Translations under genes and position numbers: made by a program
Notes under the pieces: generated by a model
The model's input: only the letters and a program-made list of their open reading frames with translations
Told to the model about the DNA's origin: nothing
The model's database searches: none
NCBI GenBank assembly: GCA_043814965.1
Contig: JBDRJN010000002.1
Span: 105,984 to 164,514 of the forward strand
Reading direction: 5' to 3'
DNA: 58,531 nt
Source of the DNA: Candidatus Omnitrophota bacterium
Lineage (GTDB): Bacteria; Omnitrophota; Gorgyraeia; Gorgyraeales; Gorgyraeaceae
In this document: one piece after another, positions 33,430-58,531 of the stretch
How the letters are laid out: each line of letters starts with the position of its first letter
How positions within the stretch are numbered: position 1 is the first letter of the stretch

Positions 33430-33483
33430 ATCATCACTAGTCCGCCAATTATCATGGAGGGCTCATTTAAACGAGGAGGTCCT

Positions 33484-34491: not shown

Positions 34492-34508
34492 AACCGAAGG
34501 CCAATAAA

Positions 34509-35387
34509 ATGATCCCAAAAGAGATCCTGAAAAATATCAAGCGAATAGAGATACGGACAGGCCGTCTAGTCAATGATGTGTTTGCGGGCCAGTATGAGTC
34601 AGTGTTTAAAGGAAGGGGTATGGAATTCCATGAGGTGCGGGAATATGTCCCTGGAGACGATATCCGTTCTATAGATTGGAATGTCACAGCCAGGACAAAC
34701 CATCCTTATGTAAAGAAATTCGTAGAAGAAAGGGAACTTACTGTCTTGATCGCAGCTGACATGAGCGCGTCCGGAAATTTCGGGACAGTAAATAAGCTCA
34801 AATCCGAGATAATGGCTGAACTTGCATCGGTTCTAGCCTTCAGCGCTATCAGGAACAATGATAAGGTCGGGCTCTTGCTCTTTACGGATAGCGTAGAAAA
34901 ATTTATTCCTCCTAAAAAAGGGAGGTCGCATGTATTAAGGGTAATAAAAGAGGTCTTGTATTATAAAAGTAAAGCCAAAAAGACCAGCATAAATAATGCG
35001 CTTCAGTATCTAGGGAGGGTGCTTAAAAAAAGAGCTATTATATTTTTATTGTCTGATTTTATGGACAAAGGATATGAAAAGATACTAGGCATACTTAATA
35101 AAAGACACGATATAATAGCCCTTTCCATATCTGACCCTAGAGAAAGCCAGATACCTGATGTAGGACTTATAAAGATGGAAGATGCAGAGACAGGAGAGTT
35201 CTTATATGTAGATGCAGGGGATGAGGTGTTTAGAAAAGGTCTTTTAAAGAAGAGGACTGAGCTAATAGCTCAGCGGAGAAAGGCCTTTAGGTCTATGAGT
35301 ATAGATACTATAGACCTATCGACAGGCAAGTCTTACATAGAGCCTCTTATGCTTTTTTTTAAGGCTCGCGCCAAGAGGTTTAGATGA
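34509..35387 (+). CDS. DUF58 (vWA-like) protein
   Basis: REYVPGDDIRSIDWN signature. Confidence 0.85.
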   Translation: MIPKEILKNIKRIEIRTGRLVNDVFAGQYESVFKGRGMEFHEVREYVPGDDIRSIDWNVTARTNHPYVKKFVEERELTVLIAADMSASGNFGTVNKLKSEIMAELASVLAFSAIRNNDKVGLLLFTDSVEKFIPPKKGRSHVLRVIKEVLYYKSKAKKTSINNALQYLGRVLKKRAIIFLLSDFMDKGYEKILGILNKRHDIIALSISDPRESQIPDVGLIKMEDAETGEFLYVDAGDEVFRKGLLKKRTELIAQRRKAFRSMSIDTIDLSTGKSYIEPLMLFFKARAKRFR

Positions 35388-35611
35388 AAAGAAATATCAC
35401 TCTAAAAGTTATCACAAGGGCGAACAAGGATGAGCTGATAGGACTTTCCAAGGATAGTTATAAGATAAAGATCACTGCTATGCCTGAAAAAGGAAAAGCA
35501 AATAAAAGGATAATAGCCTTACTCTCAGAGAAGTTTAATGTTAAAAAAGCTGACATCAGGATACTTTCGGGTTTAAAGAGCGCCAATAAAATAGTGGAGA
35601 TAGGCAGTTGA
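35384..35611 (+). CDS. DUF167 (YggU-like) protein
   Basis: PEKGKANKRIIALLSEKF and ILSGLKSANKIVEI motifs. Confidence 0.7.
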   Translation: MKRNITLKVITRANKDELIGLSKDSYKIKITAMPEKGKANKRIIALLSEKFNVKKADIRILSGLKSANKIVEIGS

Positions 35612-36099
35612 TGGAAGATATAAGGCCGCTAAAGGATATAGTAGAGATAAAAGGCAGTTTTTCGGTCTTGCCTATATTGATCACAATCTTAGCGATCGCA
35701 GCGATAGCCCTTTTTGTATATTTTAATAAAAAGAAAAAGAATAAATCAGAAGATATCTATATACCACAAAAGACGCCCAGGGAAATAGCCCTTGAAGAGC
35801 TTGAGAAACTCCTTAGCGAAGGCCTCCCCGGAAAAGGCCTTATAAAAGAATATTATATAAAGTTATCTGATATCGTAAGAAAATTCATAGAGGGGAAGTT
35901 CAATATATCTACGCTTGACAGGACCACATATGAGATCTATAGAGAGTTAAGGTCAAGCAGTGTCAATAGGGCTTTAGTGGATAGCATCAGAGGCCTTTTA
36001 GAAGAAAGTGACCTGGTTAAATTTGCCAAATATAGGCCTAACGAGAAAGAGGCTATAGATATTTTTAACAGAGTAAAAGATATTATAGAAAAAGAATGA
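35611..36099 (+). CDS. single-TM protein, DUF4381-like Bat operon member
   Basis: N-terminal TM segment and the conserved position between DUF58 and BatA. Assignment rests on context only. Confidence 0.5.
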   Translation: MEDIRPLKDIVEIKGSFSVLPILITILAIAAIALFVYFNKKKKNKSEDIYIPQKTPREIALEELEKLLSEGLPGKGLIKEYYIKLSDIVRKFIEGKFNISTLDRTTYEIYRELRSSSVNRALVDSIRGLLEESDLVKFAKYRPNEKEAIDIFNRVKDIIEKE

Positions 36100-37085
36100 G
36101 ATTCCTTTACCCGATATTCTTAATATTAACCTTAATAATACCTATATTTATCTGGATATATTTTAAAGAGTATAAAAAAAGAGAATCTACTCTGATATAT
36201 TCTGACCTCGAACTAGTCAAGGGCCTATCTCCAGGTTCCCGGATAAGGTATGGGCACCTCCCTTTCATACTCAAGCTGATAGCAATATTTATATTTATTC
36301 TGGCATTGGCCAGGCCTCAATCAGGCCATGTGGAAGAAGAGTTTATAACAGAAGGGATAGATATTGTCCTTACACTTGATACTTCTGGTAGCATGAAGGC
36401 AGAAGATTTTAAACCTCAGAATAGGCTTGGAGCAGCAAAGGAGGTCTTAGAGGAGTTTATAAGATCAAGGCGCAATGATAGAATTGGACTCGTAGTGTTT
36501 GCAAAACATAGTTTTACGCAGTGCCCGCTTACGCTTGATTATGGAGTGTTGCTGGATCTATTGGATAAGATACATATAGGTATGATAGAAGATGGGACTG
36601 CCATAGGCATGGCTATGGCAAACGCTGTCAATAGATTGAGGGATTCTACTGCAAAAAACAAGGTCATAATACTTCTTACTGACGGTATAAATAACGCAGG
36701 CAAGATAGACCCTTTGACAGCGGCAAAATTAGCGTCTACGCTTGGTATAAAGATATATACGATCGGGGCAGGCCGGCCTGGAGGCGCTCTATACCCGGTA
36801 TCTGATCCTATATTCGGTAAAAGATATGTGAAGATGGATACAGAGATAGATGAAAAACTCTTAGGAGACATTGCTGAAGAGACAGGCGGGATGTATTTCA
36901 GGGCAAAGGACGAGGAAGGGCTTAGGAAGATATACGAGACTATCGGAAAACTGGAAAAGACAAAGATAGAGACCAAAGAATATGCTGATTATAATGAGAC
37001 AGCTCCGTACTTTATCTTGCCGGGATTTGTAATATATTTATTGAGTATAGTATTATCCAATACAATGTTCCGTAAGATACCATGA
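36096..37085 (+). CDS. batA: BatA-like vWA-domain membrane protein
   Basis: N-terminal TM segments and the DTSGSM MIDAS motif. Confidence 0.8.
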   Translation: MRFLYPIFLILTLIIPIFIWIYFKEYKKRESTLIYSDLELVKGLSPGSRIRYGHLPFILKLIAIFIFILALARPQSGHVEEEFITEGIDIVLTLDTSGSMKAEDFKPQNRLGAAKEVLEEFIRSRRNDRIGLVVFAKHSFTQCPLTLDYGVLLDLLDKIHIGMIEDGTAIGMAMANAVNRLRDSTAKNKVIILLTDGINNAGKIDPLTAAKLASTLGIKIYTIGAGRPGGALYPVSDPIFGKRYVKMDTEIDEKLLGDIAEETGGMYFRAKDEEGLRKIYETIGKLEKTKIETKEYADYNETAPYFILPGFVIYLLSIVLSNTMFRKIP

Positions 37086-37128
37086 ACCCAAAACCGCATA
37101 CTACATACTGTATACTGTATACTAAAAT

Positions 37129-38142
37129 ATGAATTGGGCCTTACCAGTATTTTTAAATCTATTGATATTGATACCTATATTAGTGATATTTTTTATATTT
37201 GTCGCTAAGTCCAAAGAAAGGTCCTTGAGGATATTAGGCGATATGGAGGTAGTAAAAAAGATCTCTTTTTCAAAAGATATAGCAAGAGATCACCTTAAGG
37301 CTTTATTGATAATACTGGCTAGTTTCTTTTTGATCATATCGATCGCAAGGCCGCAGATAGGTTCCAGGCTAGTCATGAATAGAAGGAGCGGAATAGACAT
37401 AATAGCCGCTATAGATACATCCCTTAGTATGAAGGCCCAGGATATAAAACCTGCTAGATTAGATAAGGCAAAGCTTGAACTAGGTTCTTTTATAGATAAA
37501 TTAAAAGGAGACAGGATCGGTATTCTAACGTTTTCCGGAGATAGTTTTGTGCAGTGTCCTCTCACTTTGGACTACAATGCTGCAAAACTTTTTCTGGATG
37601 TTATAGAGGTCGGTATAATACCCAAACCTGGGACTGCGATCGGAGAAGCTATAAAAAAGGCTGTAGATAGTTTTGTCAAAAAAGAGACTAAATATAAAGT
37701 ACTCGTACTTCTTACAGATGGTGAAGATCACGAGAGTGACCCTCTAGGCGCTGGCCGCCTTGCAAAGAAAGAAGGTGTCATAATATATACGATAGGGATT
37801 GGCACAAAGCAAGGTGAGCCTGTCCCATTGATAGATGGTTCAGGAAATGTCTCAGGGTATAAAAAGGATACCTCAGGAGAAGTCGTCATATCAAAGCTTG
37901 ATGATAGTACTCTTCAGCGGATCGCTGTCATGACAGGAGGTAAGTATTATAATGCGACCCCCAGTGAATTTGAGCTGGAAAATATATATGAAGATATAAG
38001 CAAGATGGAAAGGAAAGAGCTGTCCGGCAGGCTCTTCACGCAATATGAGGACAGGTTCCAGTATTTTCTTGCAATAGCGTTGATACTTGTTTGTTTAGAG
38101 TTTCTTATAGGGGATAGGAAGAAAAATGCAGATATTTCTTGA
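37129..38142 (+). CDS. batB: BatB-like vWA-domain membrane protein
   Basis: DTSLSM MIDAS motif; N- and C-terminal TM segments. Confidence 0.8.
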   Translation: MNWALPVFLNLLILIPILVIFFIFVAKSKERSLRILGDMEVVKKISFSKDIARDHLKALLIILASFFLIISIARPQIGSRLVMNRRSGIDIIAAIDTSLSMKAQDIKPARLDKAKLELGSFIDKLKGDRIGILTFSGDSFVQCPLTLDYNAAKLFLDVIEVGIIPKPGTAIGEAIKKAVDSFVKKETKYKVLVLLTDGEDHESDPLGAGRLAKKEGVIIYTIGIGTKQGEPVPLIDGSGNVSGYKKDTSGEVVISKLDDSTLQRIAVMTGGKYYNATPSEFELENIYEDISKMERKELSGRLFTQYEDRFQYFLAIALILVCLEFLIGDRKKNADIS

Positions 38143-39052
38143 TTTTTTTGGCTGTAGGGGGTTAAAAAACACAGAGCGAAGCTGCCTCGCTGGGGCAGAT
38201 GAGAGTCTTTTTGAAACCCCCTACAGCCAAAAAAGAATAAGCATATTAAAGTTTTTAGTGTTAGCTAGCCTGTCTTTTTCTACTATTGGCTGGGCATGGT
38301 GGAATCCCATTGCCAGAAAAGACAAAGAAGCAAGAGAACTTTACAAAGAAGACAAGGTGGATAAGGCGCTCAAAAAATGGAAAGACGCCCAGATAGATAA
38401 CCCGCACAACAATGAACTGCAGTATAATATAGGTAATGCTTTGCATAAGCTTGATAAATATGAAGATGCTTATAAGGAATACGGGAAAAGCGTTTCCTCA
38501 AAAGATGATGAACTCAAGGCCAAGGCATATTATAATATGGGTAATACAAATTACAGGCTGGGGAAACTTAATGAAGCGATAGATTCTTATAAGAATACTC
38601 TCGCTATAGAACCTGATGATGAAGACGCAAAGTATAATATAGAATTTATACAGAAATTGCTTGATAAGAAAAAAGAAGAAAGTTCCAAGAAGAAAGATCC
38701 TGAAAAAAATGAGGAGAATAAAGATCAGCAAGAGAAAAGCCAGGGCTCGCGGGGCGAAAGCCAGGACCAGAAAGAGGCTTCTAGCCGGAGAGAATTAGAA
38801 GGCCAGGAGGATAAGAAAGAAGAGAATAATGGCTCCGGGGAAAAAGGATCCGGCGAAAAAAAAGAAGAGCCTAAAGAAGATAGATCAAGTGAAGGCTCTC
38901 AAGAAAAAGAAGCCAAGTCTCAGAAGCCGGAGATGTCCAAAGAAGATGCTATGAGATTATTGGACGCATTAAAAGATGATGAACGAGATATACAAAAAAG
39001 CCTGATAAAGCAGTATAAAGAAGGCAGCTATAATGTTGAGAAGGATTGGTAG
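38126..39052 (+). CDS. batC: BatC-like TPR protein with charged low-complexity C terminus (start uncertain)
   Basis: TPR repeats (YNIGNALHKL, AYYNMGNTNYRLG). The Glu/Lys/Ser-rich tail may be a linker. Confidence 0.75.
   Translation: MQIFLDFFGCRGLKNTERSCLAGADESLFETPYSQKRISILKFLVLASLSFSTIGWAWWNPIARKDKEARELYKEDKVDKALKKWKDAQIDNPHNNELQYNIGNALHKLDKYEDAYKEYGKSVSSKDDELKAKAYYNMGNTNYRLGKLNEAIDSYKNTLAIEPDDEDAKYNIEFIQKLLDKKKEESSKKKDPEKNEENKDQQEKSQGSRGESQDQKEASSRRELEGQEDKKEENNGSGEKGSGEKKEEPKEDRSSEGSQEKEAKSQKPEMSKEDAMRLLDALKDDERDIQKSLIKQYKEGSYNVEKDW
38144..38234. mobile_element. palindromic element with the family 4 core, lying inside the annotated 5' end of batC
   Basis: Perfect 20-bp inverted termini ttttttggctgtagggggtt / aaccccctacagccaaaaaa around the core gagcgaag..cgctggggca..gagagtcttttt. 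Confidence 0.7.
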
Positions 39053-39053
39053 C

Positions 39054-40913
39054 ATGAAAAGAACTTTATTTTGTATAATATTTATATTTATTTTTTTACC
39101 ATGTTCTTTTGCTGGGCCGCAGGATATCTCAATATCAGCTAGCATAGACAAGGAAGAGATATGTGTAGACGAGGAGATCTCGCTCACCATCGTTGTAAGC
39201 GGGAGCATATCTAATATACCAGAACCCACGATACCGGATCTGGGTGGATTTGGTTATTATTCTTCAGGAAGGTCTCAGAACATCTCTATAATAAACAGCA
39301 AGGTCTCGAGCTCTGTCTCTTTTAATTATGTACTTGTACCCAATAGTGCTGGAGAACATACGCTGGGGCCTTTTACTATAGAATACAAAGGCAATACCTA
39401 TTCTACAGGCTCTATAAAGGTCAACGTCCTCCCTGAAAAAGCCAAGAAAAGCACTGTCTCATCTAAATATACTTACCCTGAAGATAGCGGAACCAGCAAC
39501 CCGGAGCCTGACCCTAGGAATAAAGGCAGGGAGCTTTTTATTACTACGGCCATTGATAAGAATTCAGCATATGTCAATGAGCAGATAACACTTACATTTT
39601 CTTTTTATCAGTCAGTGGACCTGTTTGAGAATCCCAGGTATTCTCCTCCTGATACGACAGGCTTTTGGACAGAGGATATGCCCCCTCAAAATAAATATTA
39701 CAAGGCCATCAATGGCACAAGGTATCTTGTAACTGAGATCAAAACAGCGCTTTTTGCAACTTCACCTGGGCAATTTACAATAGGCCCTGCAACGCTGGAA
39801 GCCAGCGTAGAGGATGTCGAGAGATTTATTTCAAGAAGCCCGTTCAGTGTATTTGATAGAGACCCTTTTAGTATCTTTAGGAGAGGTAAACCCATAGTAC
39901 TCAGGACAGAACCCATAGAAGTGAATGTGCTTTCTTTGCCCGATGAAAGTAAGCCTATTGGATTTAAAGGGGATGTAGGTAGATTCGATCTAAAAGCCGC
40001 TATAGACAAAGAAAAAATCACACAGAACGAGCCAGTGACTTTAAATATGAAGGTAGAAGGAAAAGGTAACATAAAGACCATCTCCAGCCCTTTTATCCCT
40101 GAACTGGATAATGTAAAATCCTATGATTCCGGGAGCTCAGAGAACATCTCCAAGGATAATTATATAGTACAGGGCAATAAGACGTTCGAAAAGATGATCA
40201 TACCGAAAAAAGAAGGTAAATTATCCATAGGCCCCATAGAGTATAGTTATTTTGACCCTTACGAGAAAAGGTATGTTGAAAAAAAGATAGGGCCCATAAA
40301 TATAGAGGTTGAGAAAACAGAAGGATCTGAACCTGATACCATATCTACGCCTATGGCCCCAGGCCTTACTAAAGAAGAGATAAAGATATTTAAAAAAGAT
40401 ATCTCGTATATAAAGGTACATCCTTCACCTTTTACTTCACAAAAAAGGACCTTGTATAAAAATAAGATCTTTATAGCTATTGATCTATCAGCACTGCTCC
40501 TATATATAATACTGCTTACCCTGAGTCTCTACAGGGAAAGGCTTAAAAAGGATATAGGATATGCCCGTTCCAGGAGCGCAAAGCGCATTGCCTCGGCCAG
40601 GCTTAAGAAGGCAAGGCAGTTTTTGACCAAAGGCTCTACAAAGGACTTTTACAGCGAGATATATAAAGCTGTCATAGAATACATAGCAGGTAAGCTCAAT
40701 ATTCCGAATGGATCTATTACAAAAAGGCTGCTGGAAGAGACCTTAATCAAAAGAGGGCTTTCCAATGAGGCTATCAATGATATCGGTGAGTTATTTGACC
40801 TTTGCGACATGGCAAGATTTGCGTCAGGTAAGTTTACCAAGGAAGATATGGCCAATACAGTGGAAAAGGCCATTTACATAATAGGGGAACTTGAAAAGAT
40901 CAAAAAGGGTTAA
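39054..40913 (+). CDS. batD: BatD-like oxygen-tolerance protein
   Basis: Signal peptide, beta-rich repeats and a C-terminal TM segment; position in the operon. ATG 39054 follows the batC stop. Confidence 0.7.
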   Translation: MKRTLFCIIFIFIFLPCSFAGPQDISISASIDKEEICVDEEISLTIVVSGSISNIPEPTIPDLGGFGYYSSGRSQNISIINSKVSSSVSFNYVLVPNSAGEHTLGPFTIEYKGNTYSTGSIKVNVLPEKAKKSTVSSKYTYPEDSGTSNPEPDPRNKGRELFITTAIDKNSAYVNEQITLTFSFYQSVDLFENPRYSPPDTTGFWTEDMPPQNKYYKAINGTRYLVTEIKTALFATSPGQFTIGPATLEASVEDVERFISRSPFSVFDRDPFSIFRRGKPIVLRTEPIEVNVLSLPDESKPIGFKGDVGRFDLKAAIDKEKITQNEPVTLNMKVEGKGNIKTISSPFIPELDNVKSYDSGSSENISKDNYIVQGNKTFEKMIIPKKEGKLSIGPIEYSYFDPYEKRYVEKKIGPINIEVEKTEGSEPDTISTPMAPGLTKEEIKIFKKDISYIKVHPSPFTSQKRTLYKNKIFIAIDLSALLLYIILLTLSLYRERLKKDIGYARSRSAKRIASARLKKARQFLTKGSTKDFYSEIYKAVIEYIAGKLNIPNGSITKRLLEETLIKRGLSNEAINDIGELFDLCDMARFASGKFTKEDMANTVEKAIYIIGELEKIKKG

Positions 40914-40925
40914 GGGTAACGGGTT

Positions 40926-41702
40926 ATGGGTAATGGGATTATAAACAATACGAAAAAGGCAGTGTTTATATTTTTTATTGTGTTTATTTTTAGCGGGGTT
41001 TTATTCGCTGATCCTCCGGAAGATATTTTTAATTCAGCTAACCTTAAATACCAGAACGAAGATTATGAAGGCGCAGCCGCGCTTTATGAAAAACTTATAG
41101 ATATGGACAAAGCGAATGTAGAGGTGTTCTATAACCTAGGGAATAGTTATTTTAAAAAAGGCTCTACAGGAAAAGCTATCCTGAATTATGAAAGAGCGCT
41201 GAGGATATCCCCCAGAGACAGGGATATCCTGCTGAATCTGAAGATCGCAAGGGCGCTTACCTTGGACAAGATCGAAGGGCCGGATAGGGGATTTATCTTA
41301 AGCGCAATATTTTTCTTTTATGATAAGTTAAATATAGATGAGTTGACGATAGCCAGCTCTATGATCTTTATTATAATGATCATGTTCTTGGTCTTTTCTA
41401 TAAATTTTGTTGAAAAAAGAAAATATATATTTTATACTGTAAGCGCGTTCGGAATATTATTTATAGTATTTATAATATTTTTGTCCTCGAAGATACAAGC
41501 TCAGTATTTTCTAAAAGAAGCTATAGTGATTTCTGAAGAAATTGATATAAGAAGCGGGCCAAAAGAAGATTATCTAAAGCAGTTTACATTGCATGAAGGA
41601 ACAAGGCTCCGGGTGCTAAAAAAGATAAATAACTGGTATGAAGTAGGCCTTTCGAAGGATCTAAGGGGCTGGCTTCCTCAGGATAGCGTCGATATCATCT
41701 AA
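40926..41702 (+). CDS. batE: BatE-like TPR + SH3b protein
   Basis: TPR repeats, TM segments, and C-terminal NNWYEVGLSKDLRGWLPQDSV (SH3b). Confidence 0.7.
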   Translation: MGNGIINNTKKAVFIFFIVFIFSGVLFADPPEDIFNSANLKYQNEDYEGAAALYEKLIDMDKANVEVFYNLGNSYFKKGSTGKAILNYERALRISPRDRDILLNLKIARALTLDKIEGPDRGFILSAIFFFYDKLNIDELTIASSMIFIIMIMFLVFSINFVEKRKYIFYTVSAFGILFIVFIIFLSSKIQAQYFLKEAIVISEEIDIRSGPKEDYLKQFTLHEGTRLRVLKKINNWYEVGLSKDLRGWLPQDSVDII

Positions 41703-41787: not shown

Positions 41788-41854
41788 TATTTTTGTGTCT
41801 AACCAAAAAATAACCACGTAACACCAACCCCGCGGAAGCATACAGGAGGTGAAG

Positions 41855-44800
41855 ATGCAGGTAGAAACAAATGGCATGAAAAAAATAAACATCTCTGAAA
41901 ATTGTCTGACAGTCCTTAAGCGTAGATATTTAAAAAAAGATAAGGATGGAGTGGTGATCGAGACTCCCGAGGAGATGTTTAAAAGAGTCGCTTTTCACAT
42001 AGCTAAGGCTGATGAGCTGTATGGGGCGGCTGTCGAAGAGATCAAAGAAGTAGAGAATAATTTTTACGATGCGATGAGTAATTTTGAGTTCATGCCAAAC
42101 AGCCCAACGCTCATGAATGCAGGAAAAGAGTTAGGGCAATTATCCGCATGTTTTGTCTTGCCTGTAGGAGATTCGATGGATTCAATATTCGATGCAATAA
42201 AAAATACGGCCATGATCCACAAATGCTTGACCGCAGATACACTAGTTAAGACTAAAAGCGGCATAAAGAGGTTAAATGAAATAAAGAAAAATACCAAGAT
42301 TCAGACTAAAGAAGGGTATTCGCTTGTAAAAGGCCTTTATAACAATGGAAAACAGATTGTTTTTGAGGTTACTACAAATAGGGGTTATGCAATAAAAGGA
42401 ACGGGGGAGCATAAACTTTTAGTAGTAGCTGAGAATGGTGAATATGTTTGGCGGGAGATAGGAGACCTTAAAGCTGGCGATTGGGTAGCGATGAAACTCT
42501 GCGATAAATTGGATGGCGGAAAAAATAAGTTACCTTCTTTTAGATATAGATCCAAACCGGTGGTAAATTCAGGCCAATTCAAAGCACATGGAATAAATAT
42601 TCTTGAAACATTGACTTGTGAGTTAGCAGAACTAATAGGTCTTTATGTGGGCGATGGATCCAACCATAGAGATGGTATCAGATTTTCTGTTGGAAAAGAT
42701 GATAGAGAGATGGTGGATATAATAAAACGTTTGTCAAAGGCTGTTTTTAATAAGGAAGCTAGCTTTAGTTTGACAGCGAACAAGGGTTATGAGGTTGCGA
42801 TTTTAAGTATTATAGCTAAACAGTGGTTTGAATTTTTAGGCATAACCAAGCCTTCTTCCAGAAATGCAAGAATTCCTGATGTTCTTTTAGGGGCAACTGA
42901 AGATATAATCTGCGCTTTTCTAAGAGGGTTGTTCTCTGCTGACGGTTGTATTCGGGAAACAGGCCATATAACATTAAGCACAAGCTCTAAGGTTCTTTCA
43001 GAAGACCTCCAGAGCTTAATGTTTTATATAGGTATACCTACGCAGAGAACCTATTTCAAATTTACGGACAGTTTCCAGGTTTCTGTATGCACAAAACAGG
43101 GATTTTTGAATTTCAAGAAAAAGATAGGATTTTTGTTAAAGAGAAAAAATGATAGGTTAAAAGGGGTTGTTATTTCTTCAATGTTTAAGCGCGGAGAGGT
43201 TATACCGAATCAAAAAAACAGGATCAAAGACTGGTATAATGAACTTGGCAGTTTTTCTGAAAGGCATGAGGCTCGCAGGTTATTTGATGATATTATGCAT
43301 AGGAATATCAGCCCCAGAGAGTTGACCAGGCAAAAGATCGTTTCTGTTATTGAGAAGATATCTTATATGCCACAATTTTTTAAGACAATATTAAAGGAAG
43401 AATACTTTTTTGTAAGGGTTTCCGGTGTCAGTCTTTTAGGTATAATGGATACCTATGATTTGACAGTTCCTTGCGGGCATAATTATTTAGCAAATGGGTT
43501 TATATCCCATAATTCCGGAGGTGGTACTGGATTTAGCTTTTCAAGGCTGCGTGGTAAAAATAGCGTTGTAAGATCAACGGGCGGCGTATCAAGCGGGCCC
43601 GTATCTTTTATGAAGGTATTCAATGCTGCTACTCAAGCAGTGAAGCAAGGCGGTACGCGCCGCGGCGCCAATATGGGGATCCTCAGGATAGACCATCCTG
43701 ACATACTTGAATTTATAAGGTGCAAAGAAAGCGATAAAGAGATAACTAATTTTAATATATCCATTGCCTTGACAGAAGATTTTATGAAAAAAGTCATAGA
43801 TGACAAAGAGTACAATCTGATAGACCCCCATACCAAAAAGGTCGTCAATAGGCTCAAGGCAAAAGAAGTATTTGACCTGATCGTGGAGCTTGCATGGAAA
43901 AATGGTGAACCTGGTATCGTGTTTATAGACAGGATAAACAAATATAACCCTACTCCCAAACTAGGAGAGATAGAATCTACTAATCCGTGCGTTACAGGAA
44001 ATACCCTGGTCTCTACAGAACATGGGCTTATGAAGATGAGCGATATAGTTAAGTTTTTTAAAAAAGGAGGCCTCAGGGTTGCCACTGATGACAGGGTTGC
44101 TGAAATATTATATTCCGAAGGGCAAAGAGGCGGATTGGCAATAAAGGCAAGATGCGGCATTACATTTAACTCTATAAGTAAGGCACTGTATAGCGGAGAA
44201 AAAGAAGTGTTTAAACTGGTAACCGCTTCTGGTTATGAATTAGAAGCAACAGGCGATCATAAGATAATGACTACAAAAGGCTGGATTGAATTAAAAGGCC
44301 TTAAGAAAAATTATCACAAAATATTGATCCAGTCAGGCGAAGGAAGATTTAATGAGGATAAACGCCTGCCGTTTCCTGTTGTAAACAATTTTATAGGAGA
44401 AAACGGGCTTAGGTCTAAACTTAATTTGCCTTTAGAGTGGAGTAAGGAATTGGGCCAGGCTTTAGGCTGGATCGTAGGTGATGGATGGCTTAGGGAAGGA
44501 GAGAAAGATTGTAGAGTTGGGTTGACATTCAGTAAAGATGACAAAGAAATTTTAGCTTCCCTAAAGGAGAGTCTCAATAATTGGTATGGATGCGATATCA
44601 AAGAGGTTAAAAGGGAGAACGGAGTAAAGCACTTATCGTACCATAGTAAATATTTTGTTGAATTTTTTAAATCTTTAGGAGTTAAGGCATGGCAGTCTCA
44701 TGAAAAAGAAGTGCCTGAGTCGATTTATACTGCGCCAAAAGAAGCAGTGATAGGATTTTTGCAGGGTTTGTTTGGAGCTGATGGCACAGTAAGGGATAAT

Positions 44801-46660
44801 CCTAAAAGTAATAGCTCATGGGTTGCCTTGACATCAAAAAGTAAAACATTGCTCAACCAAGTACAATTATTATTGTTAAATTTTGGAATTAAAAGTAAGC
44901 TTTACGATCGCAGCAGAAAACCTAGAGAAAATTTATTCCCATATATTACGAAAGACGGTAAACATAAGACCTATAGCAGCGATGGGATTCTGTTTGAACT
45001 AGGGATATTTGGAGAAAGCCGCGAGAGATTTAGATTGCTAGTAGGTTTTTCAAACGAGAAAAAAAATAAAAGTTTGGATAGTATAAGATTTAAAAGATTT
45101 TATCGTCAGGAATATGAAGAAGATATTTTATTTATCAAAAAAATTGGAAAACGGAAAGTATATGATATTACAGAACCACAAACACACTCTATGATTGTCA
45201 GTGGTATTGTAGCTCATCAATGCGGGGAACAGCCGCTTCTGCCGTTCGAAAGCTGCAACCTGGGTTCGATAAATCTTTCAACAGTTGTGGTTGGTAATGA
45301 GAAAAAGGAAATAGATTGGGAGAAACTAAAAAAGCTTGTACATACCGCAGTACATTTTCTTGATAATGTCATAGACATGAATAAGTTCCCGCTAAAAGAG
45401 ATAGAAGACATGACCCGCGCCAATAGAAAAATAGGGCTGGGTGTCATGGGGTGGGCAGATATGCTTATAAAATTGGAGATACCCTATAATAGCGATGAGG
45501 CAGTAGAGCTGGCTGGAAAAATTGCTAGTTTTATAGATGAAGAGTCAAAGGTGAAGTCAGAAGAGTTGGCTGGTAAAAGAGGAGCTTTCCCGTCATACAA
45601 TGACAGTATCTTTGCTGAACAAGAGGTAGGCATGAGAAGGAACGCGACCCTTACTACTATTGCCCCGACAGGTACCATATCGATCATATCCAATACATCA
45701 AGCGGTATTGAGCCTATATTCGCGCTTTCGTATTACAGGAATGTCATGGATAACGATAAACTTGTAGAGGTCAATCCTTTGTTTGAGGAGATAGCAAAAA
45801 ATGAGGGGTTTTATTCCAGGAAACTTATGGAAGATATTGCAGAAAGGGGTAGCGTAAAGGATATCCCAGAAGTCCCTGAGAAATATAAAAAGACATTTGT
45901 GACCTCACATGACATAGCGCCTATTTGGCATATAAGGATGCAGGCAGCTTTTCAGAGATATACTGACAATGCTGTTTCAAAGACAGTTAACTTTCATCAG
46001 GATGCTTCCAAGGAAGATGTGCATGAAGTCTATATGCTTGCGTATAAATTAGGATGTAAAGGCATCACTATATATAGGGATAAAAGCAGGGAAGAACAAG
46101 TGCTTAATATAAGCTCAAACCCCGCGCTTAGCAAGAACATCTCTATCGCAAAAGATAAAAATGTAGCTCCCAGGCCAAGGCCTGTTGTGACGACTGGTAC
46201 GACTACTAAGGTAAATACCGGCTGCGGTAATCTGTATATTACTATCAATGTGGATGACAACAATATGCCATTCGAGGTATTTATCCAGATGGGAAAAGCT
46301 GGCGGCTGCGCAGCCAGCCAGCTGGAGGCAATAGGAAGGCTTGTGTCTTTAGCGCTTCGTTCAGGAGTTGAAAATAAAAAGATCGTAGACCAGCTAAGGG
46401 GCATCCGCTGTCCTTCTCCGTCGTGGGGAAAAGGCGGGAGGATATTCTCATGCGCTGATGCTATAGCAAGAGTGCTTGAATTGAGGCTGGGAAGCGGCAG
46501 TATGCATACCAAAGAGGAAGAGCTTGAACAAAGGTCTCCTCATACAATGATAGAAGATAAGCTGGGTAATGTCGTGGGAGTGTGTCCTGATTGCGGGGCT
46601 GCGCTCAGGCACGAAGAAGGTTGTGTAGTATGCCGTTCCTGTGGTTATTCAAAGTGCTGA
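41855..46660 (+). CDS. nrdJ: class II (adenosylcobalamin-dependent) ribonucleotide reductase carrying two inteins; the spliced extein is about 760 aa
   Basis: Extein motifs [14 protein letters not shown]|[16 protein letters not shown]|[19 protein letters not shown], and a C-terminal [13 protein letters not shown] zinc ribbon. ATG 41855 follows SD AGGAGG. Confidence 0.9.
42224..43513 (+). mobile_element. intein 1 (430 aa) with LAGLIDADG homing-endonuclease domain
   Basis: Starts CLTADTLV; block B GTGEHK; LAGLIDADG motifs [10 protein letters not shown] and [11 protein letters not shown]; ends FISHN with +1 Ser. Confidence 0.85.
43988..45220 (+). mobile_element. intein 2 (411 aa) with LAGLIDADG domain and a non-canonical C-terminal Gln
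   Basis: Starts CVTGNTLV; block B ATGDHK; LGWIVGDGW and [11 protein letters not shown]; ends VAHQ with +1 Cys, the first residue of the CGEQ motif. Confidence 0.8.
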
Positions 46661-47257: not shown

Positions 47258-47285
47258 TTGACAATTTAAAATTATAGTGTATACT
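47258..47285 (+). promoter_or_regulatory. sigma70-type promoter, TTGACA-16 nt-TATACT, upstream of the giant ORF
   Basis: Hexamers read directly; same architecture as the nrdJ promoter. Confidence 0.55.
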
Positions 47286-47392: not shown

Positions 47393-47538
47393 AAAGGATA
47401 TTTATCTGAGACATTGCCTCTAATATTGAATAAACCTTTTCCCATGACGAAGGACAATTTAGAGGCGTGTCCAGATAATCCGTAAATCGCAGTACTAGTC
47501 AAGGCACACTTTTTAGTGTGCCGAAAAAATCTAAACCT

Positions 47539-47640
47539 ATGGAAAGCTGTAAAAGAGGGCCAAATAGAATATTCATTAAGATAATAGCACTAATATTGGT
47601 CCATTCATTTTTCCTGACATCCACCTGCTATCCTCTTCCC
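47539..47640 (+). other. giant ORF: signal-anchor-like N terminus
   Basis: MESCKRGPNR followed by IFIKIIALILVHSFFLTSTCYP. Confidence 0.55.
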
Positions 47641-50600
47641 TCTGTAAGCGAATTATTTAAATATAAAAGGCCTGTATATAGCTTTAATAATAGAAACCAT
47701 AGGGTAAATATCTCTTCTTTCAATGATATGCCTTATATATATAACCCAGATATAAAAGATAATATAAATGATCTAAGGGCTATTGTGAGTTTTTGTAAAT
47801 CAAAATTTAAAGAAGATTTTAATGAGCTGGTAAGAAAGGGAGAAAAAGAAGGCTGGCTCAACAAAGACCTTTTAAGCGAGATGGATGTATATGGGTTCAC
47901 TGATAATTTTGTAGCAATAGAAGTAGCGCTCGGGTTATTAGTAGGCCTGGAAAAAGGGATAACCCCTGATGAAGAAAACATAAGGAAGATGTTCAAAAAG
48001 AAATTTAGAAAAGCTATAAGAGACGGCGAAAGTATAAATATTAAAAATATCGGGGAAGGCTGGTATGTTTCCTACGGCAGTACAACCCTTTTTGTTAAAG
48101 CCGGGGCAATAAGTAGAGTCGATTCTATCCCTTCCAAAGACATAATCTCATCTTTTAGTATAGCTTCCAATGAGACAAGAACCAGGCCTGATCAGTTAGT
48201 GGTAAGCGCAAGACCATCACAAGCAGGCCAAGAGATAGATCTCTCTGGAATAATACAACGTACAGGCCAAAATGCCTTTAAGGATATTCTGATCAAGGCG
48301 CTATCGCCTTATTTAAACTACTCTGAAGATTATGATGAGAGGTTTTTTACTGAAGCAATAAAAAAATTAACATCATACAGGTCTTTTTCAAAGCTATATT
48401 CCGGCATAGGGGATCAAGGCGGGCAATTGATAGATATCGCTTTGCCCGGCCTTATGAGAGAGAAGATAAAAAATGACAACATAGTTTTGACAGTAAAGAG
48501 CATAGGGGTCGGAGGCGAGGGGCACGCGCTCTATGAGACAGCGAATAAGATAATAGATTACCTCAAAAAAAATGATCTTTATTCATCAGCAGAACAGGGA
48601 AAGATAAAGATCAGGCTTATAGGGTATGATATAAACTTAGCAAATCTTTCCGAAGTATCCGGAAAGATTGATAGACAATTTGAAGGCCTTGATCCTGTAT
48701 GGAGAAATTGCATAGAAAAGGAGTTTATTTACGCTGATCTAACAGATGAGAATGCCTATAAGGTATTATTTGAGGAAAAGGCTGATCTCTTGTTCTGCAG
48801 GTCCACGTGGGTAGCTTCTACCAGCAGATGGACCAAGGATAGGGCTGAAAACATAAGGGACTTATTGGAATCCAATGTAAATGATCTTGGGGTTTCATAT
48901 ATCAGCGGTTTGGGAGGCGCAGGATACGCATATCTTGATAGAGGCCGTATTATAGCGCCTAAATATACAAAGATAGATAAATTAGAGGATTCAACTTTTA
49001 TAAATGAATTTGAATTTAAGGGAGAGGCAATAGTTGAAAAAGAAGTAGAAATAAAAAGCCCTCAAAAACAGGCAGGCGTTTCGTTCGTTGATTATATAAA
49101 AACAAATAATTATACAAGTATTATAGATATTGGCACTGGCAAAAATGCTGGGTTCTTGTATAAGTTAAGAACCAGTGGATTGTCAGGAGTAGAATTATAT
49201 GGTATTGCACCTGGAATGGATACCGAAACTATAGAGACTGCTAAAAATATTAATATAGTTTTAAACGATTTAAGCTATGAAAAATTAGGAAAATTAAATA
49301 AAAAATTTGATGTAATAACTATTAATGCCCCGGATTATCAATATGACATAGATAATTTTTTAAATATTTTGAAAAGTTGCCTTTCCCCTAATGGTATTAT
49401 TATCCTTAGGGCAGATGATTTTAAAAGAGATATTAGCGAAAAGAAGAATGTTACTGAGAACTTATTCAAGAATACAATAAAACTACACCACTCTGATTTA
49501 AAAATAGTGGATGTTAATCTAGACATGAAAGAGTTGACCACTGATTTTCCATTAAGAGACCCTATAGTAATAAAACTTGCGCTGTCTCTGATCGATCAAG
49601 CTTATGATACTGCAATGGAAAAAGGCAATCTTGAAGAGGCGCTTAATTTAGCAGTAAAAGCCCTGTCATCAGAAGAAGATATAAATATTAAAACAGCCTC
49701 TGAACTTTTGGGAGGCTTGATGGATGGCCTCCAGGGAGAAAAAAGGGATATATCCGAATCTTTACTAGAAATAGTCAAAACCTACGGAGGTGATAATGTT
49801 AGGAGAAAGAAAGAAGTAGAAAGGTATTTGCAAAAGCAGGAAGACATAAAGAAAACCCTAAAGCCTATACGCGACATGCTGGGTGATGTAAAATTTCTAA
49901 AGATATACATCGCATTAAGGAGCATGGAACATGCTGGCACAGTATATGATATAAAAGGCCTTCTTGGTACAGGTATACGTAATTCCGTAGAAACCTCTAG
50001 AGTCGGGAAAAAACTTAATGCTGAAATAATGAAAGGCCTTATGGCGATCATGGCCGAGGCTGACAGGATAGTAAAAGCTAATAGTGACTTAAATAATGAA
50101 GAAGCTATTCCTATAGATCTTAATAAAGAGCTAGAAGAAGGCATAGAAGAAAAATGGCTGAATAGCCTGGAATCTATCTTAAAAAGAGTAAAAGACTTAT
50201 ATGCGCAATGTGAAGAATTAGAGAAAAAATGCAGCCCCAATAGCATAGAATTAGAGTCAATACAGGATGTCGGAAAGCCTATCAATGAAATCATAGAGAT
50301 CCTTGAGGAAAGGTTGGCGTGGATACAAGGGGAAGGGGATCTTAAAAAAGAGCTTCTCGATCTTAATGCAGTGATTAGCAATATTGTAGCTAAAATTAAG
50401 CAAGGGTTTAAAAATCCGGAACTAGAGGTATCTCTTGATTTATCTACTATACCTGTGACTGAAGCCAATAAGAGGATGATAGAGTGCCTTATAAGTAATA
50501 TCTTAACAAATAATGACCAGTTAAGTAAAACCATGGATATTACACATATTGGCATCAGGACCAGGTTATCGGATGACGGGAAGAATATCATTCTTCAAGT

Positions 50601-53600
50601 TTCTGACAATGGCCTGGGTTTTCCTGAAGAAGGCCTTGAACAGTCTTCCAAAAAGGCATTTTTTACTCAAAGAAAAGGCGGCACAGGCCTTGGCCTGACC
50701 GAGAATGAGCTGTATGCGCGTGAACATAATGGCACGATCCAGATAGGCCGCGGCATACTGGATTTCATGACCAAAGACCCTGCAAATAATGGCACCACAT
50801 TTACCATAACATTGCCTATAGAAGGCAAACAGCAGCCAGCCCAAACGCCGCAGCCAGTTCCAGAAGAGATAAATCAACAGAATGTTGATAATGATAAATC
50901 TACCCAAGCTCAAAAGACAATCTTATTAGTAGATGATAAAGAGTCACATTTAATCAGCTATAAATATGAATTAGAACAATCAGGCTACAAAGTCGTTACT
51001 GCTATTTCTGCTAAAAATGCTTTAGATATTTCTAAAACACAAAATTTTGACATGGTAGTTACGGATCTTAATCTGGGTGGGCCAGATGGATTGTCTTTGG
51101 CTAGTGATCTTAAGAGCGAAGGATTCAACGGGCCTATATTAGTACAGACACCAGCTGATGTAGGTCATCTTAATAAAAATCTTGCCAAACGAAAAGATCA
51201 AGCTATTGAAAATGGAAACATAGTAGATTTTATTGAAAAACCAGCTTCTATTTTTACTGGAATCCAGGAAGCCAGCAGTTTGTCAGCGATCATTGAGAGA
51301 TATACAAAAGCAGATGCTGAAAGAGAAATAATGCAGCCGGACATTACTCTTGCCGCAGCCGATGAGGCTAACAAGAGAATCACTCAATCGGATGTGCATA
51401 ATGCCATAGAAGAAAATCTTCCTGAGGACCTAAAAGATTTTCAGAATATGACATCCGAAGAGCAGAAGAAAATAAAGGAAAAGTATAGGGACTCGGATGG
51501 CCAGATAGTCATACCTATAGAAGAGCTTCTTTTAAATACAGGCCTATTAGGCCATATTGGCCTGGGCCAGTTCTATGGGGAGCCAGTCATATATATAGAT
51601 GCTCAGTTTAAAGGCAGGGATAGAAGAGATATCAAAAAACACGAAAAATTTGAAATATTTAAGTGGGAGAATGGAAGAAAACAGTTGGGTCTCGACCACG
51701 ATCAGATGAGGAAATGGATAGTGCAAAACTCTAACACAGACGGTAATGGAAAGGCGCAATTACTTGCATCACAATGGCACAATCAAGCCCCATCAGTAAA
51801 CCATATATACAATAGGCTTGCGAAGCAGCCTCAATATCAGAAAAGCATAAGTAGTGTTCCCAAATCAGAAAGCGGATATATCGAAGACACCTATACCACA
51901 GGATCTGTCTATCAAGATAATCATGAAAGCCAGGGTAAAAATGTATCTGCCAAAGAAGAAGATATAAAGAGATATTGCAAAAAATACCCTGCAATGGAAA
52001 AAATGTTTAAGCAGGCTTTTATAGAGAAGAATATTGATATTCTTGCTAAGGCAGAGAGTAGGGAATTTTCTGTTGGCGATGCATCAGACTTATTTGGCGA
52101 TAGATATGACAATAGCTTGCCAGACTTGATTAGCCAGGGTTATACCATTGATTTCATTGATAAGCATCTTTCTGACATTATAGATATCGTTATAAATTCC
52201 GAAACCAATGGTATTGAAGAAATGAAGAATTTTAGTTATCTGATAGATCATTTTGCTGAAAGCTGGATAAGTAGCCACTGGGACGGCATAGTAAAGCTGA
52301 TAAGAAATGGCAATAATTATGTAGGCAACAGGCTCGCGCGCTTAATTGGAGAATATGGCTTAACCACCTTTACCCGCAGCTGGTTAGATGATAACTGGGA
52401 TGCGATAGTAGCTATAGGCACTGACATAGAAGACGAATTGGTATTTCTTAAAGGCGCTTGCGGTATCCCATGGCTAAATGCTAATCTTCCAATACTTGCC
52501 TCAGGCAATGCTTCCGAGATAAAAGCAATAAAGGATAAAATTATAAATGGAAAAGCAGGCGTCACGCTTTCTGATACCAAACAATCAGGCGTACTCAGTA
52601 TTATAGATGATATTGTAAATAAAAGAAAGATCGCTCCTATAGAAGCAGGGCAAACCAGAGAGCAAAAAACCATCAATGATGTAGTCAATATCGTAAGGTC
52701 ATTAAGGCCTGCCATACCTAAAAATGGGTCTATCAGCGCAATGCAATATGAAGGATATATAAAGGCCCTTACAAAGGATTTGGGAATAGGCTATGCGTTG
52801 AAACGAGAAGGGGCAATAGGTGTTATAAAGAACTTATATAGGGAAATAAAAACAGGGGAAAGGGCCAGGCCAGATTTATTATTGTGGGAAGAATATCTTT
52901 TTAGGCCTTTCTTTAGCCAACAGCCGCGTGTAAAATATAAAGATTTCAACAGAAACCTTGAGGTAATAATGCCTGGAAAAACCGTTTTTATAACTCCTTT
53001 TTTAAGCGCTATAGCTATTATGATAGGTTCGGGTTCAGTCTTTGGCCCATTGATCGGCCCTCTGGTAGCTTTACCTATAACTTTTATGTATATGTTAACC
53101 GCGATAAAAGGATTAGCAACAAGTTTTACTAATGAGAATAGCTCTATGCGTCATGAACTTAACCATGCATATGTAAGTTGTATAATGAAAAAATTGTCAC
53201 AAGAAGGATTACTGGCTGATCTTAAAGATGGAGATAAAAAACTTGGGCCTGATGACGGATTTAGCAATCTCCCTGTAAATTATCCTATAACAAATGAAAA
53301 CCTTGAGCAAATAGAAAATCATGTCGTAAGACAACTCTATGACCTTCCTACACCAATAACGACACCTGATGTTGTTCTCGCTGCTGGCATCCAGAAAAGA
53401 CCTGACAGCCAAGGTTTTACAGGTGAGGTATATAAAAAGCTTATAGATCATATACCCAGCGGTTATTTTGATTATAATGAAAAAGGATTAGGCGTACTTT
53501 TAAAGTCGCTAGGAAGGACCGCAGAACCTACAGAGTCAGCTGCAGCCAATAGAGTATATAAAAGCATGCTTAATAATATTGAAAAAGGCATATCCAAAGC

Positions 53601-56600
53601 TGAAGAACTGGATGACAAAACAGTTTTAAATCAGCTTAATAAAAAATATAAAAAATTCCTTAATTCAGAAGGCCTGGAAAAGATAGAAGATATTACAAGA
53701 AATGCCAGGTCTAGAGAAGGATTCTATGAGCTCTTAAACACTTCGCTGACATCTATGAGTACTTCTTTGGAATTAGACCCAGAAGAACTCACCCAAAGCG
53801 GAAAGGCCGAAGAGTATTACAGGAATATACAGGAAAACGCATATAGATTCAGGGTATTATCAAGGGCTTATGACATCTTAAGCTTGAAAGGCCCATTTGA
53901 GCTAACAACCGATAGCGGGAAGATATATTATACGCTGGATGAGACTACAGATAAGGAAGAGATGTTAGGTATAGTGGAAAACTTATCTGACCCAGAAGGA
54001 GAGTTGGATGATCATGGTTTTAGGTCTGGCTGGAGAGGAGATATAAAATATACTAAAAACGCAGCCATGGTAATAGCAAAGTCATCTGATGGTAAGAGCA
54101 TAGGCGTCGCGCTTTATCATAAAGATGATTTTATGTTCATGCAGGACAGGGCTAAAAAAGGAGATTATACAAGTTCTGTGTATATGGTAGATTTTGGATA
54201 TGTATTAAAGGATTTCAGGAAAAATGGTCTTGTGTCAAACGACCTAAAGACAAAGATATATGAACGAGCTTTACTGGACAGCGGTATAGGCGCAAGGAGC
54301 GACAGCAGGATCATGCTTATAAAACCAGCTAATAAAGATATGTATGATGGTTGGAAGAAGAATAATTATACAGTTGAAACGTTCTATAGCAGGGACCTGT
54401 CACCGGAAGACCAGTGGCAGCAGAGTTATCGTGTGATTTATAGGGGCGTTGGAGAGTCGAATCTAACACAGGCTAAAAATAGGGTAGTAATTTCAGGTAC
54501 AAAAAGAGAGAGGCCTTCAGTAGCTACTTTTGCCAACTTATCCATGGGGGAATTGACAATCCTCTCTTCTGAAAAGAATGAAGATAGAGCAAATTTCACG
54601 AAAAGCATTGTAAATTGGTTAAATAATGGCAAGCCTAAGCATTTTTCCAGTAGAGTTTGGTATGCTTCTGTAGCTGGTGCGATAGGAGAAAATTATATAG
54701 TTAGATTAGGAAGTGTCGATAACCCCTTAGCGCTTGCTCATGTAACAAAAAGAACTGGAATATTATCAGGCTTTGGAAAAAAAGATTTTTATGAGATAAG
54801 CCTTGTGGAAGTTTCTGAAGAATTTAGGGGCCAGGGGATCTTAGGCCGTATAGTTGACAAAGTAGTTAATGAAATCGCTAAAGGCGAGCTGGTTGTAGCT
54901 TACCCGGATAATGATGATGCCAGGCATGCCTTTGAAAAGATCCCAGGAGGCTTCCCAGTAACCTGGCAAGAGAGCCCTTACAGGGATGAAGAAGGTAATC
55001 TATGGGCTGATGTAGAATGTTTTGCATTCCAAAACCAAGGCCTTGCAGGCGATATTACAGTAACCCAAATCCCTGCCAACTTCTCCATGCAGCCGAAGAA
55101 TACGGATCATTCTTTTAGTAAAGACGGAAGCGTAGATAATACAAAGTTTACAGTAAATGGCAAAACTTACACTATAGATTCTACCCTGGATCCAAAGGAT
55201 ATAGGCGTCCAGATAGGCGAAGACATACCTATCATAACCCAGAAAGGCGTGAATATCACCTTTACTATAAGGGGCCCGACCAATAAACAAGCTGTAGTGG
55301 AAGTACTTACCCCACAGCTTCTTGCTAATGCAATAGCGCGTTCAAAAAAGATGTATCCAGAAGGCAATCCAGCCAACCAAATAATAACCATAGTCCTTGC
55401 AGATCAATATGACTATATCGCAGGAGATGATGTCCAAAACGGCATAATTATCTTCAATGCTTCTGTAATAGAAGACATGATAAATAACGGCGAAAACAAT
55501 GCCTTTATTGATGAATTCCTGACAGCAGTCTTAGAGGAAGAAGATTCTCATGAATGCGGCGCACCGAGAGATATGGAAACAGAGATGTTCCTTGATGGAA
55601 GAGGCGCAGACCTTACTATGCAGAATCTAAACGACAAAAAACTATCCCTAAAGGGTTATATTAATTTTGTCTCTAGATACGCTTCGGATGCTAAAAACAA
55701 TAATTATCTGGCACAATTAAAAAATGACTCTGATATTACATTAGATCTTACCCTGGAAGAAATCACAAGGATGCGCCAGATACATAGTGACCATCAAATA
55801 AGGGTGTACGACAAGCTTATGGACGGCTTGGAAATAAATCTTGGCGGACTGGAAGCAGACCTTTATATGTCTGGTAGCAGAAATATCAGGCAATATAATC
55901 TTTCGTTATTAAGGCCTACCCAGGGTTATTTATATCAGACCAAGCTTGATATCCAGTCTATAAAAACCAAGATACGCAATAAATACGGCCTTTTTATGAC
56001 GCCTGTAGTCATTCTTGATTTTGGAAAAGACGGGAAGTTTATCGCTGATGGCCATCACCGTTATCAGGAGGCCTTAGCTACTGGCGAGACTTCCATAGAA
56101 GCATATACCATATCATTTGATTGGAACGATTATGATATATGGCCGCAAAAGATGAAGGACTTTTATGATGATTGCAAGTTACGAGCTGAGTCTGTAGAAA
56201 ATAATGGGTTTAATGTAATGCCGAATTCAACAACATGGGATTTTCTGTTCTACAATATGATGTACCATATACCTGTAATAATAGACACATTGATAAGCGA
56301 TGTGCATTTATTGGATGAATATTCTGCTGAAAAATTCCTGGATGCTGCTTATCATGCATTGTCAGGAAAAGACTCTCTTTGGATAGAATATGACCTAGCA
56401 AGGGCTATTGCAGAGCTTAAGCTGACTGATCGCAAAGAAGAGATAGTTATTTCTAAGGAATCATTTGATAGGGCAGTTACAGAGCTAAATTTAGAAGAAA
56501 GCAATGGCACAATAACATTAAAATCAGGGGTTATCTTTAAACGTGGAGAGATAGAAACGCCTAGTGTTAATGCCAATAGCACTATTCAGGGAGCTGAAGA

Positions 56601-58531: not shown

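Follow-up and report, generated by a model that had tools for sequence, protein, structure and literature searches.

An 11-kb reading frame left open at a contig end as the probable 5' part of a giant multi-enzyme protein gene of Omnitrophota

Background

The giant proteins of Omnitrophota are among the largest predicted proteins in nature, and to our knowledge no function has been demonstrated, and no biochemical characterization reported, for any of them. Most of the full-length giants of this phylum contain a SecA_DEAD-like domain. The archaeovorins of West-Roberts et al. (2023), for which the size threshold is above 30,000 aa, are typified by a 39,678-aa protein from Velamenicoccus archaeovorus, and their genes are often truncated by assembly (bioRxiv 10.1101/2023.11.21.568195). 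Archaeovorins have many transmembrane (TM) regions, HEAT repeats and domain-poor N-terminal parts beside signal peptides; methyltransferases and peptidases are frequent in them, and HATPase_c is in their top 20 domains (bioRxiv 10.1101/2023.11.21.568195). According to work cited in that preprint, a V. archaeovorus giant protein rises threefold upon prey contact.

The catalogue of Nielsen and Lui (2026), which applies a threshold of at least 10,000 aa, comprises 916 long proteins (bioRxiv 10.64898/2026.06.07.730766). TM helices or a signal peptide were found there in 94% of the Omnitrophota long proteins, with around 2% of residues in TM segments, and 46% of the long proteins are TM-only, with a cytoplasmic bulk. 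Around 80% of the sequence clusters are singletons. The same study describes a 'multi-enzyme' class, together with peptidase and repeat-scaffold communities, in Omnitrophota long proteins, and a 'Module 1' composed of methyltransferase, HATPase_c and GNAT domains, which is called a 'signal-transduction / regulatory architecture'; a receiver is present in 105 of 779 proteins (bioRxiv 10.64898/2026.06.07.730766).

Here we describe an open-ended reading frame that fills the last 11 kb of a window of 58,531 nucleotides, by which we mean the whole stretch of DNA analysed. We put at roughly 80% the probability that it represents the 5' 11 kb of a gene of the giant, multi-enzyme, membrane-anchored class of Omnitrophota, cut by the assembly within a tandem repeat. 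This class assignment has to be read against size, since the published thresholds are 10,000 aa or more, or above 30,000 aa, whereas 3,664 aa are visible here, and the full protein may be long and not giant, because proteins that share its modules are complete at 3,579–3,957 aa. The locus is a new example of a described Omnitrophota oddity and not an unrecognized family. An earlier reading of the sequence alone had recognized no characterized family in this chain. That is literally true, none having been characterized biochemically, but the domain mix is that of a class already described in Omnitrophota.

Coding sequence

On re-translation, the plus-strand frame that begins at ATG 47539 runs through 3,664 codons to position 58530 with zero stops, in agreement with the count given by the sequence-only reading. 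The frame is already open at 47479; ATG 47539 is the first ATG, and a GTG at 47518 lies upstream of it in frame. Given the composition of the window (38.6% G+C, corresponding to a stop probability of 0.073 per codon), a run of 3,664 codons without a stop would arise by chance with a probability of around 1e-120. Codon usage was scored with a model whose training set, 13 genes of the window with Pfam support, itself scores 0.20–0.37. All 900-nt tiles of the long ORF have log-likelihoods of 0.20–0.34 bits per codon, and the two alternative frames are negative throughout the 11 kb. Furthermore, the region from 47.5 to 58.5 kb is free of Ns, and neither G+C nor GC3 shows a step. The sequence-only reading had argued that this is not a chance open frame, as borne out by the 1e-120 estimate and by host-like codon usage in every tile, and that it contains recognizable enzyme motifs, of which the methyltransferase, HATPase_c, receiver and GNAT are matched by Pfam.

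The minus-strand ORFs within the long ORF have codon scores of −0.09 to 0.07, and in the 11-kb region they are shadows of the long frame. A 159-aa antisense ORF (58014–58493, −) has a codon score of 0.215 and sits within the terminal tandem repeat; it is probably open thanks to the repeat, and not a gene.

As the sequence-only reading had noted, the ORF track supplied with the window has no plus-strand entry after 47216. The lister omits ORFs that run off an end, and this is why the long ORF is missing from it. The ORF is therefore unlisted as far as that track is concerned, but the public catalogue already holds the identical protein: P0001 (NCBI), 3,664 aa long, equals the translation of the window and is the top match of the full HMMER search with aa 2465–3664. 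It is located on a single NCBI contig of 164,514 bp, the end of which is also the end of the window. Thus, a gene caller that tolerates open ends arrived at an identical start and an identical truncation. With no stop, host-like codons and an identical public call, the stretch at 47539–58531 (+) is annotated as an open-ended CDS that covers the 5' portion of a very long gene. Its coding sequence is real and native, and it goes on beyond the window.

A DNA tandem array, detected by TRF and by a repeat finder, fills the last 516 nt of the window (58016–58531, +) and is cut by the window end. The array consists of 4.5 units of 114 nt (38 aa), and its 228-nt super-units are 91% identical; the repeat finder detected no other DNA repeat in the 11 kb. 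This near-identical repeat is probably the reason why the assembly stops at the window end. Searches of the genome collection, of metagenomes and of the retrieved proteins yielded no contig overlapping the open end. Exact-sequence look-ups of three neighbouring proteins and of the long ORF itself led to no contig, the metagenome scan gave no match, and the retrieved proteins include no continuation fragment, the closest of them being only 47% identical to the last 152 aa. The locus illustrates two ways in which such genes escape notice: tandem repeats truncate giant-type genes in assemblies, and ORF tracks that require a stop codon hide them.

Upstream region and gene neighbourhood

A gap of 322 nt separates the long ORF from the dCTP deaminase gene. 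Within it, a consensus scan found a promoter-like sequence, TTGACA-16-TATACT (47258–47285, +), which agrees with the consensus in 11 of 12 positions and is a pattern match only. A perfect 7-bp hairpin, GGCACAC TTTTTA GTGTGCC (47503–47522, +), can be read from the sequence 16 nt 5' of the ATG. It overlaps the alternative GTG start at 47518 and is not terminator-like; it might affect translation initiation of the long ORF.

The upstream genes form an ordinary chromosomal set of an anaerobe. They include thiamine genes and genes for TatC, hybrid-cluster protein, flavodiiron protein, rubrerythrins, OGG, Era, NAD synthase, a GH5 cellulase, an AddA-type helicase-nuclease, ribonucleotide reductase (RNR) and dCTP deaminase. 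NAD synthase has 54–63% identity to proteins of Omnitrophota/Omnitrophica, which account for all organism-named entries among the 120 best matches listed, so that this one marker gene indicates a genome of Omnitrophota for which no close relative has been sequenced. The scan of the upstream ORFs, several short ones excepted, turned up no component of type II secretion or of a pilus, and tRNA and Rfam scans detected no rRNA, tRNA or Rfam elements in the window.

Several other features of this neighbourhood were recorded. A complete operon of the Bat aerotolerance type (MoxR, DUF58, two BatA-VWA genes, TPR, BatD and TPR-SH3) occupies 33454–41702 (+) and adjoins the RNR gene and the long gene on their upstream side. 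The RNR large subunit (41849–46660, +; 1,603 aa) apparently contains two inteins that bear LAGLIDADG endonuclease domains: two of its stretches are matched by Intein_splicing and two by LAGLIDADG_3, and its barrel spans 855 aa against a profile of 523 positions. The GH5 cellulase gene (9900–11102) lies 36 kb from the long ORF and is directly followed by a 1,091-aa ORF (11127–14402, +) without a Pfam match. A gene for a KAP-family/AAA_16 P-loop NTPase (24647–25765, +) is situated amid the housekeeping genes; KAP-family NTPase genes are often associated with defence.

Domain architecture of the N-terminal part

Near the N terminus, a basic stretch, KRGPNR, precedes a hydrophobic segment at aa 11–33 (47569–47637, +; peak of 2.0 in a 19-aa Kyte-Doolittle window), which we regard as a predicted signal peptide or signal anchor. 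Membrane segments were called by a simple hydropathy scale, which also revealed a membrane hairpin of two helices, aa 1816–1834 and aa 1838–1860 (52984–53118, +; peaks of 1.88 and 1.94). Twelve residues after this hairpin, a motif search found HELNH (53152–53166, +), an instance of HExxH and a possible membrane-proximal metalloprotease site; as it has no family match, it is to be taken as a lead only.

Pfam Methyltransf_31 identifies a SAM-dependent methyltransferase at aa 526–637 (49114–49449, +), with an E-value of 2.6e-6 and 27.6 bits against a cut-off of 27; the match to BioC is weak. A CheR-like fold at around aa 318–430 and a second GNAT at around aa 2170–2260 were impressions gained from the sequence and were dropped, as neither has Pfam support. 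The GNAT acetyltransferase core that we retain is at aa 2396–2472 (54724–54954, +), where Pfam Acetyltransf_1 matched the tile searched with an E-value of 3.9e-6 and 27.5 bits (cut-off 20.7) and FR47 with an E-value of 2.4e-5.

A histidine-kinase-type module, comprising a helical segment and HATPase_c, is located at aa 898–1099 (50230–50835, +). Its HATPase_c domain (aa 982–1095; Pfam E 3.5e-13) has the N, G1 and G2 boxes, and the alignments of the module with ZraS, EnvZ and SrrB from the PDB begin at the second DHp helix and take in the ATPase domain. In typical kinases the acceptor His is situated around 105–115 residues before the N box. Here aa 801–1001, which include the 180-residue stretch preceding the ATPase domain, contain no His at all, and the nearest upstream His, His798, is around 190 residues before the N box. 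Pfam found no HisKA match in the long ORF either, and together these two results indicate that the canonical phospho-acceptor is missing. The response-regulator receiver that follows, at aa 1128–1235 (50920–51243, +), is matched by Pfam Response_reg (E 7e-13) and by the PhoP receiver (E 1.9e-9), and has the acidic pair DD, the acceptor Asp (in VVTDLNL), the Thr and the Lys all in place. Given the absence of the His and of a HisKA match, the ATPase and the receiver may be a non-canonical or regulatory pair; no known output domain of the two-component type was found in the long ORF.

A small conserved module is present at aa 1325–1428 (51511–51822, +; HIGLGQ.YG.PV.Y.D ... WHNQAPS). Its relative P0280, 42% identical over 113 aa, is the sole homologue found for aa 1240–2465 in a word-indexed search that needs shared 5-residue words. 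The same kind of search, which can miss distant relatives, found none for aa 1–900, and PDB sequence searches beyond the kinase/receiver region gave no match; the first 2,465 aa or so are almost without detectable relatives. Self-comparison revealed a first block of 38-aa repeats at aa 1463–1640 (51925–52458, +), within which aa 1463–1550 match aa 3456–3536 with 33% identity (E 2e-7). This block is an older copy of the 38-aa repeat found at the C-terminal side.

C-terminal modules and their relatives

The C-terminal third of the visible chain has many relatives. The representative search with aa 2465–3664 returned 526 matches at E ≤ 1e-3, and these sort into five independent modules.

Module A, of around 220 aa (aa 2509–2729; 55063–55725, +), is marked by the motifs FTIRGP, LADxYDYxAGD, NAS and xxHExGA and has at least 24 relatives. 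It has no Pfam or PDB sequence match, the matches of its profile being limited to brief, spurious segments in designed TIM barrels. Its AlphaFold model has a pLDDT of 85.9, and the best Foldseek matches of the model are the catalytic domains of M1 aminopeptidases, although weakly (E around 1e-3, TM score around 0.4). The model suggests a zincin-like fold, in which the conserved helix bears HE and lacks the second His of HExxH.

The next module (aa 2728–3004; 55720–56550, +) is a ParB/sulfiredoxin (Srx)-fold domain with a helical extension and the motifs L.PTQ and DGHHR. DGHHR is conserved in its four relatives P0007, P0076, P0097 and P0060, and P0076 has a weak ParBc_2 match. In the AlphaFold model of aa 2728–3270, which covers this domain and module C (pLDDT 80.5), the core of the ParB/Srx domain, around 80 residues, superposes with an rmsd of 2.2–4 Å on its Foldseek matches, namely Atu1540, ParB-CDP, Noc, sulfiredoxin, free serine kinase and SbnI, at E-values of 2e-4 to 1e-2. 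ParB, Noc, sulfiredoxin, free serine kinase and SbnI share the ParB/Srx fold, and all are concerned with nucleotide binding or phosphotransfer.

Module C (aa 3084–3265; 56788–57333, +) has the motifs DN..IRG, FHE.GE, HT.LRG.GKD.R, LIRYN and G.QD. Twenty homologous segments were found, with up to three in a single long protein (three each in P0029 and P0083), and none of its matches is named. In the model, a small beta-sheet is followed by a helix bearing FHELGEG, and on this basis module C is possibly zincin-like.

A zinc metallopeptidase module occupies aa 3257–3470 (57307–57948, +). HEIGH is at residue 3361, and the third ligand is in NEDFAE around 45 residues further on, giving the gluzincin pattern of HExxH plus a downstream Glu. 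The module weakly matches Peptidase_Mx1 and ATLF, and matches TIGR04549 (HExxH lipoprotein) with an E-value of 5.8e-6; it has 54 small relatives, some of which exceed the Peptidase_Mx cut-off. Dozens of similar proteins of 210–370 aa show that the HEIGH zincin module also circulates as a free-standing gene. One stand-alone zincin of 268 aa is encoded on a Patescibacteria MAG contig (CBFIAK010000001.1, L001, 9566–10372). It is 37% identical to ours over around 100 aa, and it was the only match of the genome-collection scan with aa 3001–3450. Motifs and models taken together suggest that, besides a single canonical gluzincin peptidase, the chain contains two modules of zincin-like character.

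The second block of 38-aa repeats (aa 3467–3664; 57937–58531, +) runs on at the window end. It is up to 77% identical to itself at a 76-aa period, and the repeat is common to around 60 proteins. The repeat profile has weak matches among designed helical repeat proteins (best E 1.5e-4), and Pfam assigned the repeats to no repeat family, HEAT included.

At the module level, long proteins of Omnitrophota share modules A and C and the repeat block with the long ORF. Order and copy number differ between the long proteins with shared modules, none of which is collinear with the long ORF. Those with a named organism are mostly from Omnitrophota: P0006, P0008, P0009 (Candidatus Orphnella occulta), the P0010 cluster and P0057. 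Single cases come from Margulisiibacteriota, Elusimicrobiota and Auribacterota. The module-sharing proteins that are complete at 3,579–3,957 aa are P0151 and P0153, both of Omnitrophota. No SecA_DEAD, C39 or glycosyl-transferase domain is present in the visible 3,664 aa of the long ORF, and a C39 peptidase was not found near its N terminus.

Discussion

We interpret the protein as a series of autonomous enzyme modules that is associated with the membrane and divided up by repeat blocks. Such a protein would be held at the cell membrane, and its repeat blocks would serve as spacers or scaffolds between the enzyme modules. The kinase-type ATPase and the receiver might provide local regulation, and the peptidase modules might act on the surface of a partner cell or else cut the polyprotein. 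The whole assembly would then serve the host-attached or predatory lifestyle that has been proposed for Omnitrophota.

The sidedness of the chain presents a difficulty. If aa 11–33 are a signal anchor and there is one hairpin, all modules should lie outside, though they need ATP, SAM and acetyl-CoA; outward-facing modules that depend on these cofactors are hard to square with catalysis. The conflict is resolved if the bulk of the chain is cytoplasmic, or if the enzymes are exported, cut free by the internal peptidase modules and active in another cell, and each of these solutions corresponds to an alternative explanation.

The alternative that survives best, although we consider it unlikely, is a membrane-tethered signalling or regulatory scaffold that faces the cytoplasm of the producer. 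In it, the kinase-type ATPase and the receiver would detect a signal or pass one on, and the modules that transfer methyl, acetyl or nucleotide groups would modify the producer's own targets. Every enzymatic module uses cytoplasmic cofactors, and the HATPase_c and receiver motifs are intact. The description of Module 1 as a 'signal-transduction / regulatory architecture' and the 46% of long proteins that are TM-only (bioRxiv 10.64898/2026.06.07.730766) also agree with a scaffold of this kind. However, the N-terminal segment, following basic residues as it does, resembles an export signal; the phospho-acceptor His is missing where the DHp helix should bear one; and signalling through the pair would lead to no known two-component-type output domain found in the chain.

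We rate as distinctly improbable a self-processing effector polyprotein resembling MARTX toxins, which would be exported, cut by its zincins and active through its enzymes within a host or prey cell. The enzymes delivered would be the methyltransferase, the acetyltransferase, the ParB/Srx-type nucleotide enzyme and the His-less ATPase/receiver pair. The hydrophobic leader at the N terminus suits such a protein, as do the zincin-like modules along the chain, one canonical and two or three degenerate. It would also account for enzymes that need cytoplasmic SAM, acetyl-CoA and ATP even though a simple reading of the topology places them outside. The shuffling of the modules among relatives recalls polymorphic toxins, and the reported threefold rise of a V. 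archaeovorus giant on prey contact (cited in bioRxiv 10.1101/2023.11.21.568195) points in the same direction. Yet the visible chain has no RTX repeats, cysteine protease autoprocessing domain, translocation domain or match to a toxin family, two of its zincin-like modules are without the full metal-binding motif, no cleavage sites are known, and the scanned upstream ORFs include no secretion genes. If it were true, the polyprotein would represent a delivery strategy unlike the 'cell-wall degradation' role at the surface that has been proposed for the giants of Omnitrophota.

An artefact, whether ordinary genes fused by errors or a chimeric contig end, is scarcely credible: the contig is metagenome-assembled and does end in a repeat, but the frame is free of stops over 3,664 codons, its codon usage is uniform and host-like, its composition shows no step, its sole DNA repeat is at the very end, its domain boundaries bear no start-like or stop-like signals, and long fused architectures are usual in this phylum.

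As a probable member of the multi-enzyme, membrane-anchored class, the present example adds to the Omnitrophota giants a readable N-terminal 3.6 kaa with a promoter-like upstream region. It also adds a kinase-type ATPase/receiver pair without the His, a ParB/sulfiredoxin-fold module and the recurrent, unnamed modules A and C. Modules A and C have confident models and are small enough for stand-alone expression, which makes them a practical route to the function of the class; the His-less kinase/receiver pair is likewise testable in isolation.

Comparison with known systems

MARTX and polymorphic toxins resemble the long ORF in being very long secreted or anchored chains of unrelated, shuffled enzyme modules with internal protease-like modules. 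In contrast to MARTX, the long ORF has no RTX repeats, no cysteine protease autoprocessing domain and no toxin-family match in Pfam or NCBIfam, and type I secretion genes are absent among the scanned neighbours. With hybrid histidine kinases of the TorS, ArcB and BarA type it shares a HATPase_c domain directly followed by a complete receiver, but it has no HisKA match and no acceptor His, and the module amounts to less than 10% of the visible chain.

Compared with the archaeovorins, the visible part is without SecA_DEAD, glycosyl transferase, NUDIX and C39 domains and without a Pfam HEAT match, and no collinear homology is detectable. It resembles them in phylum, in a domain-poor N-terminal region by a predicted signal peptide, in the presence of methyltransferase, peptidase and HATPase_c, in TM segments, in possibly helical repeats between the enzymes, and in a gene cut by an assembly break.

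The class described by Nielsen and Lui differs from the long ORF in some respects: 3,664 aa are visible here against a threshold of 10,000 aa, the visible part has no sugar-metabolism domains, and the ParB/Srx domain and modules A and C are unnamed in their paper. No secretion or pilus genes are among the upstream ORFs scanned, and the downstream side lies beyond the contig. In other respects the correspondence is close. The host is a member of Omnitrophota, and the chain combines an anchor with sparse TM segments, which account for around 1.6% of its residues against around 2% in the class. Methyltransferase, HATPase_c, GNAT and receiver are found in one chain, together with peptidases and repeats that may act as scaffolding, and, as in that class, the overall sequence is unique while its modules are shared.
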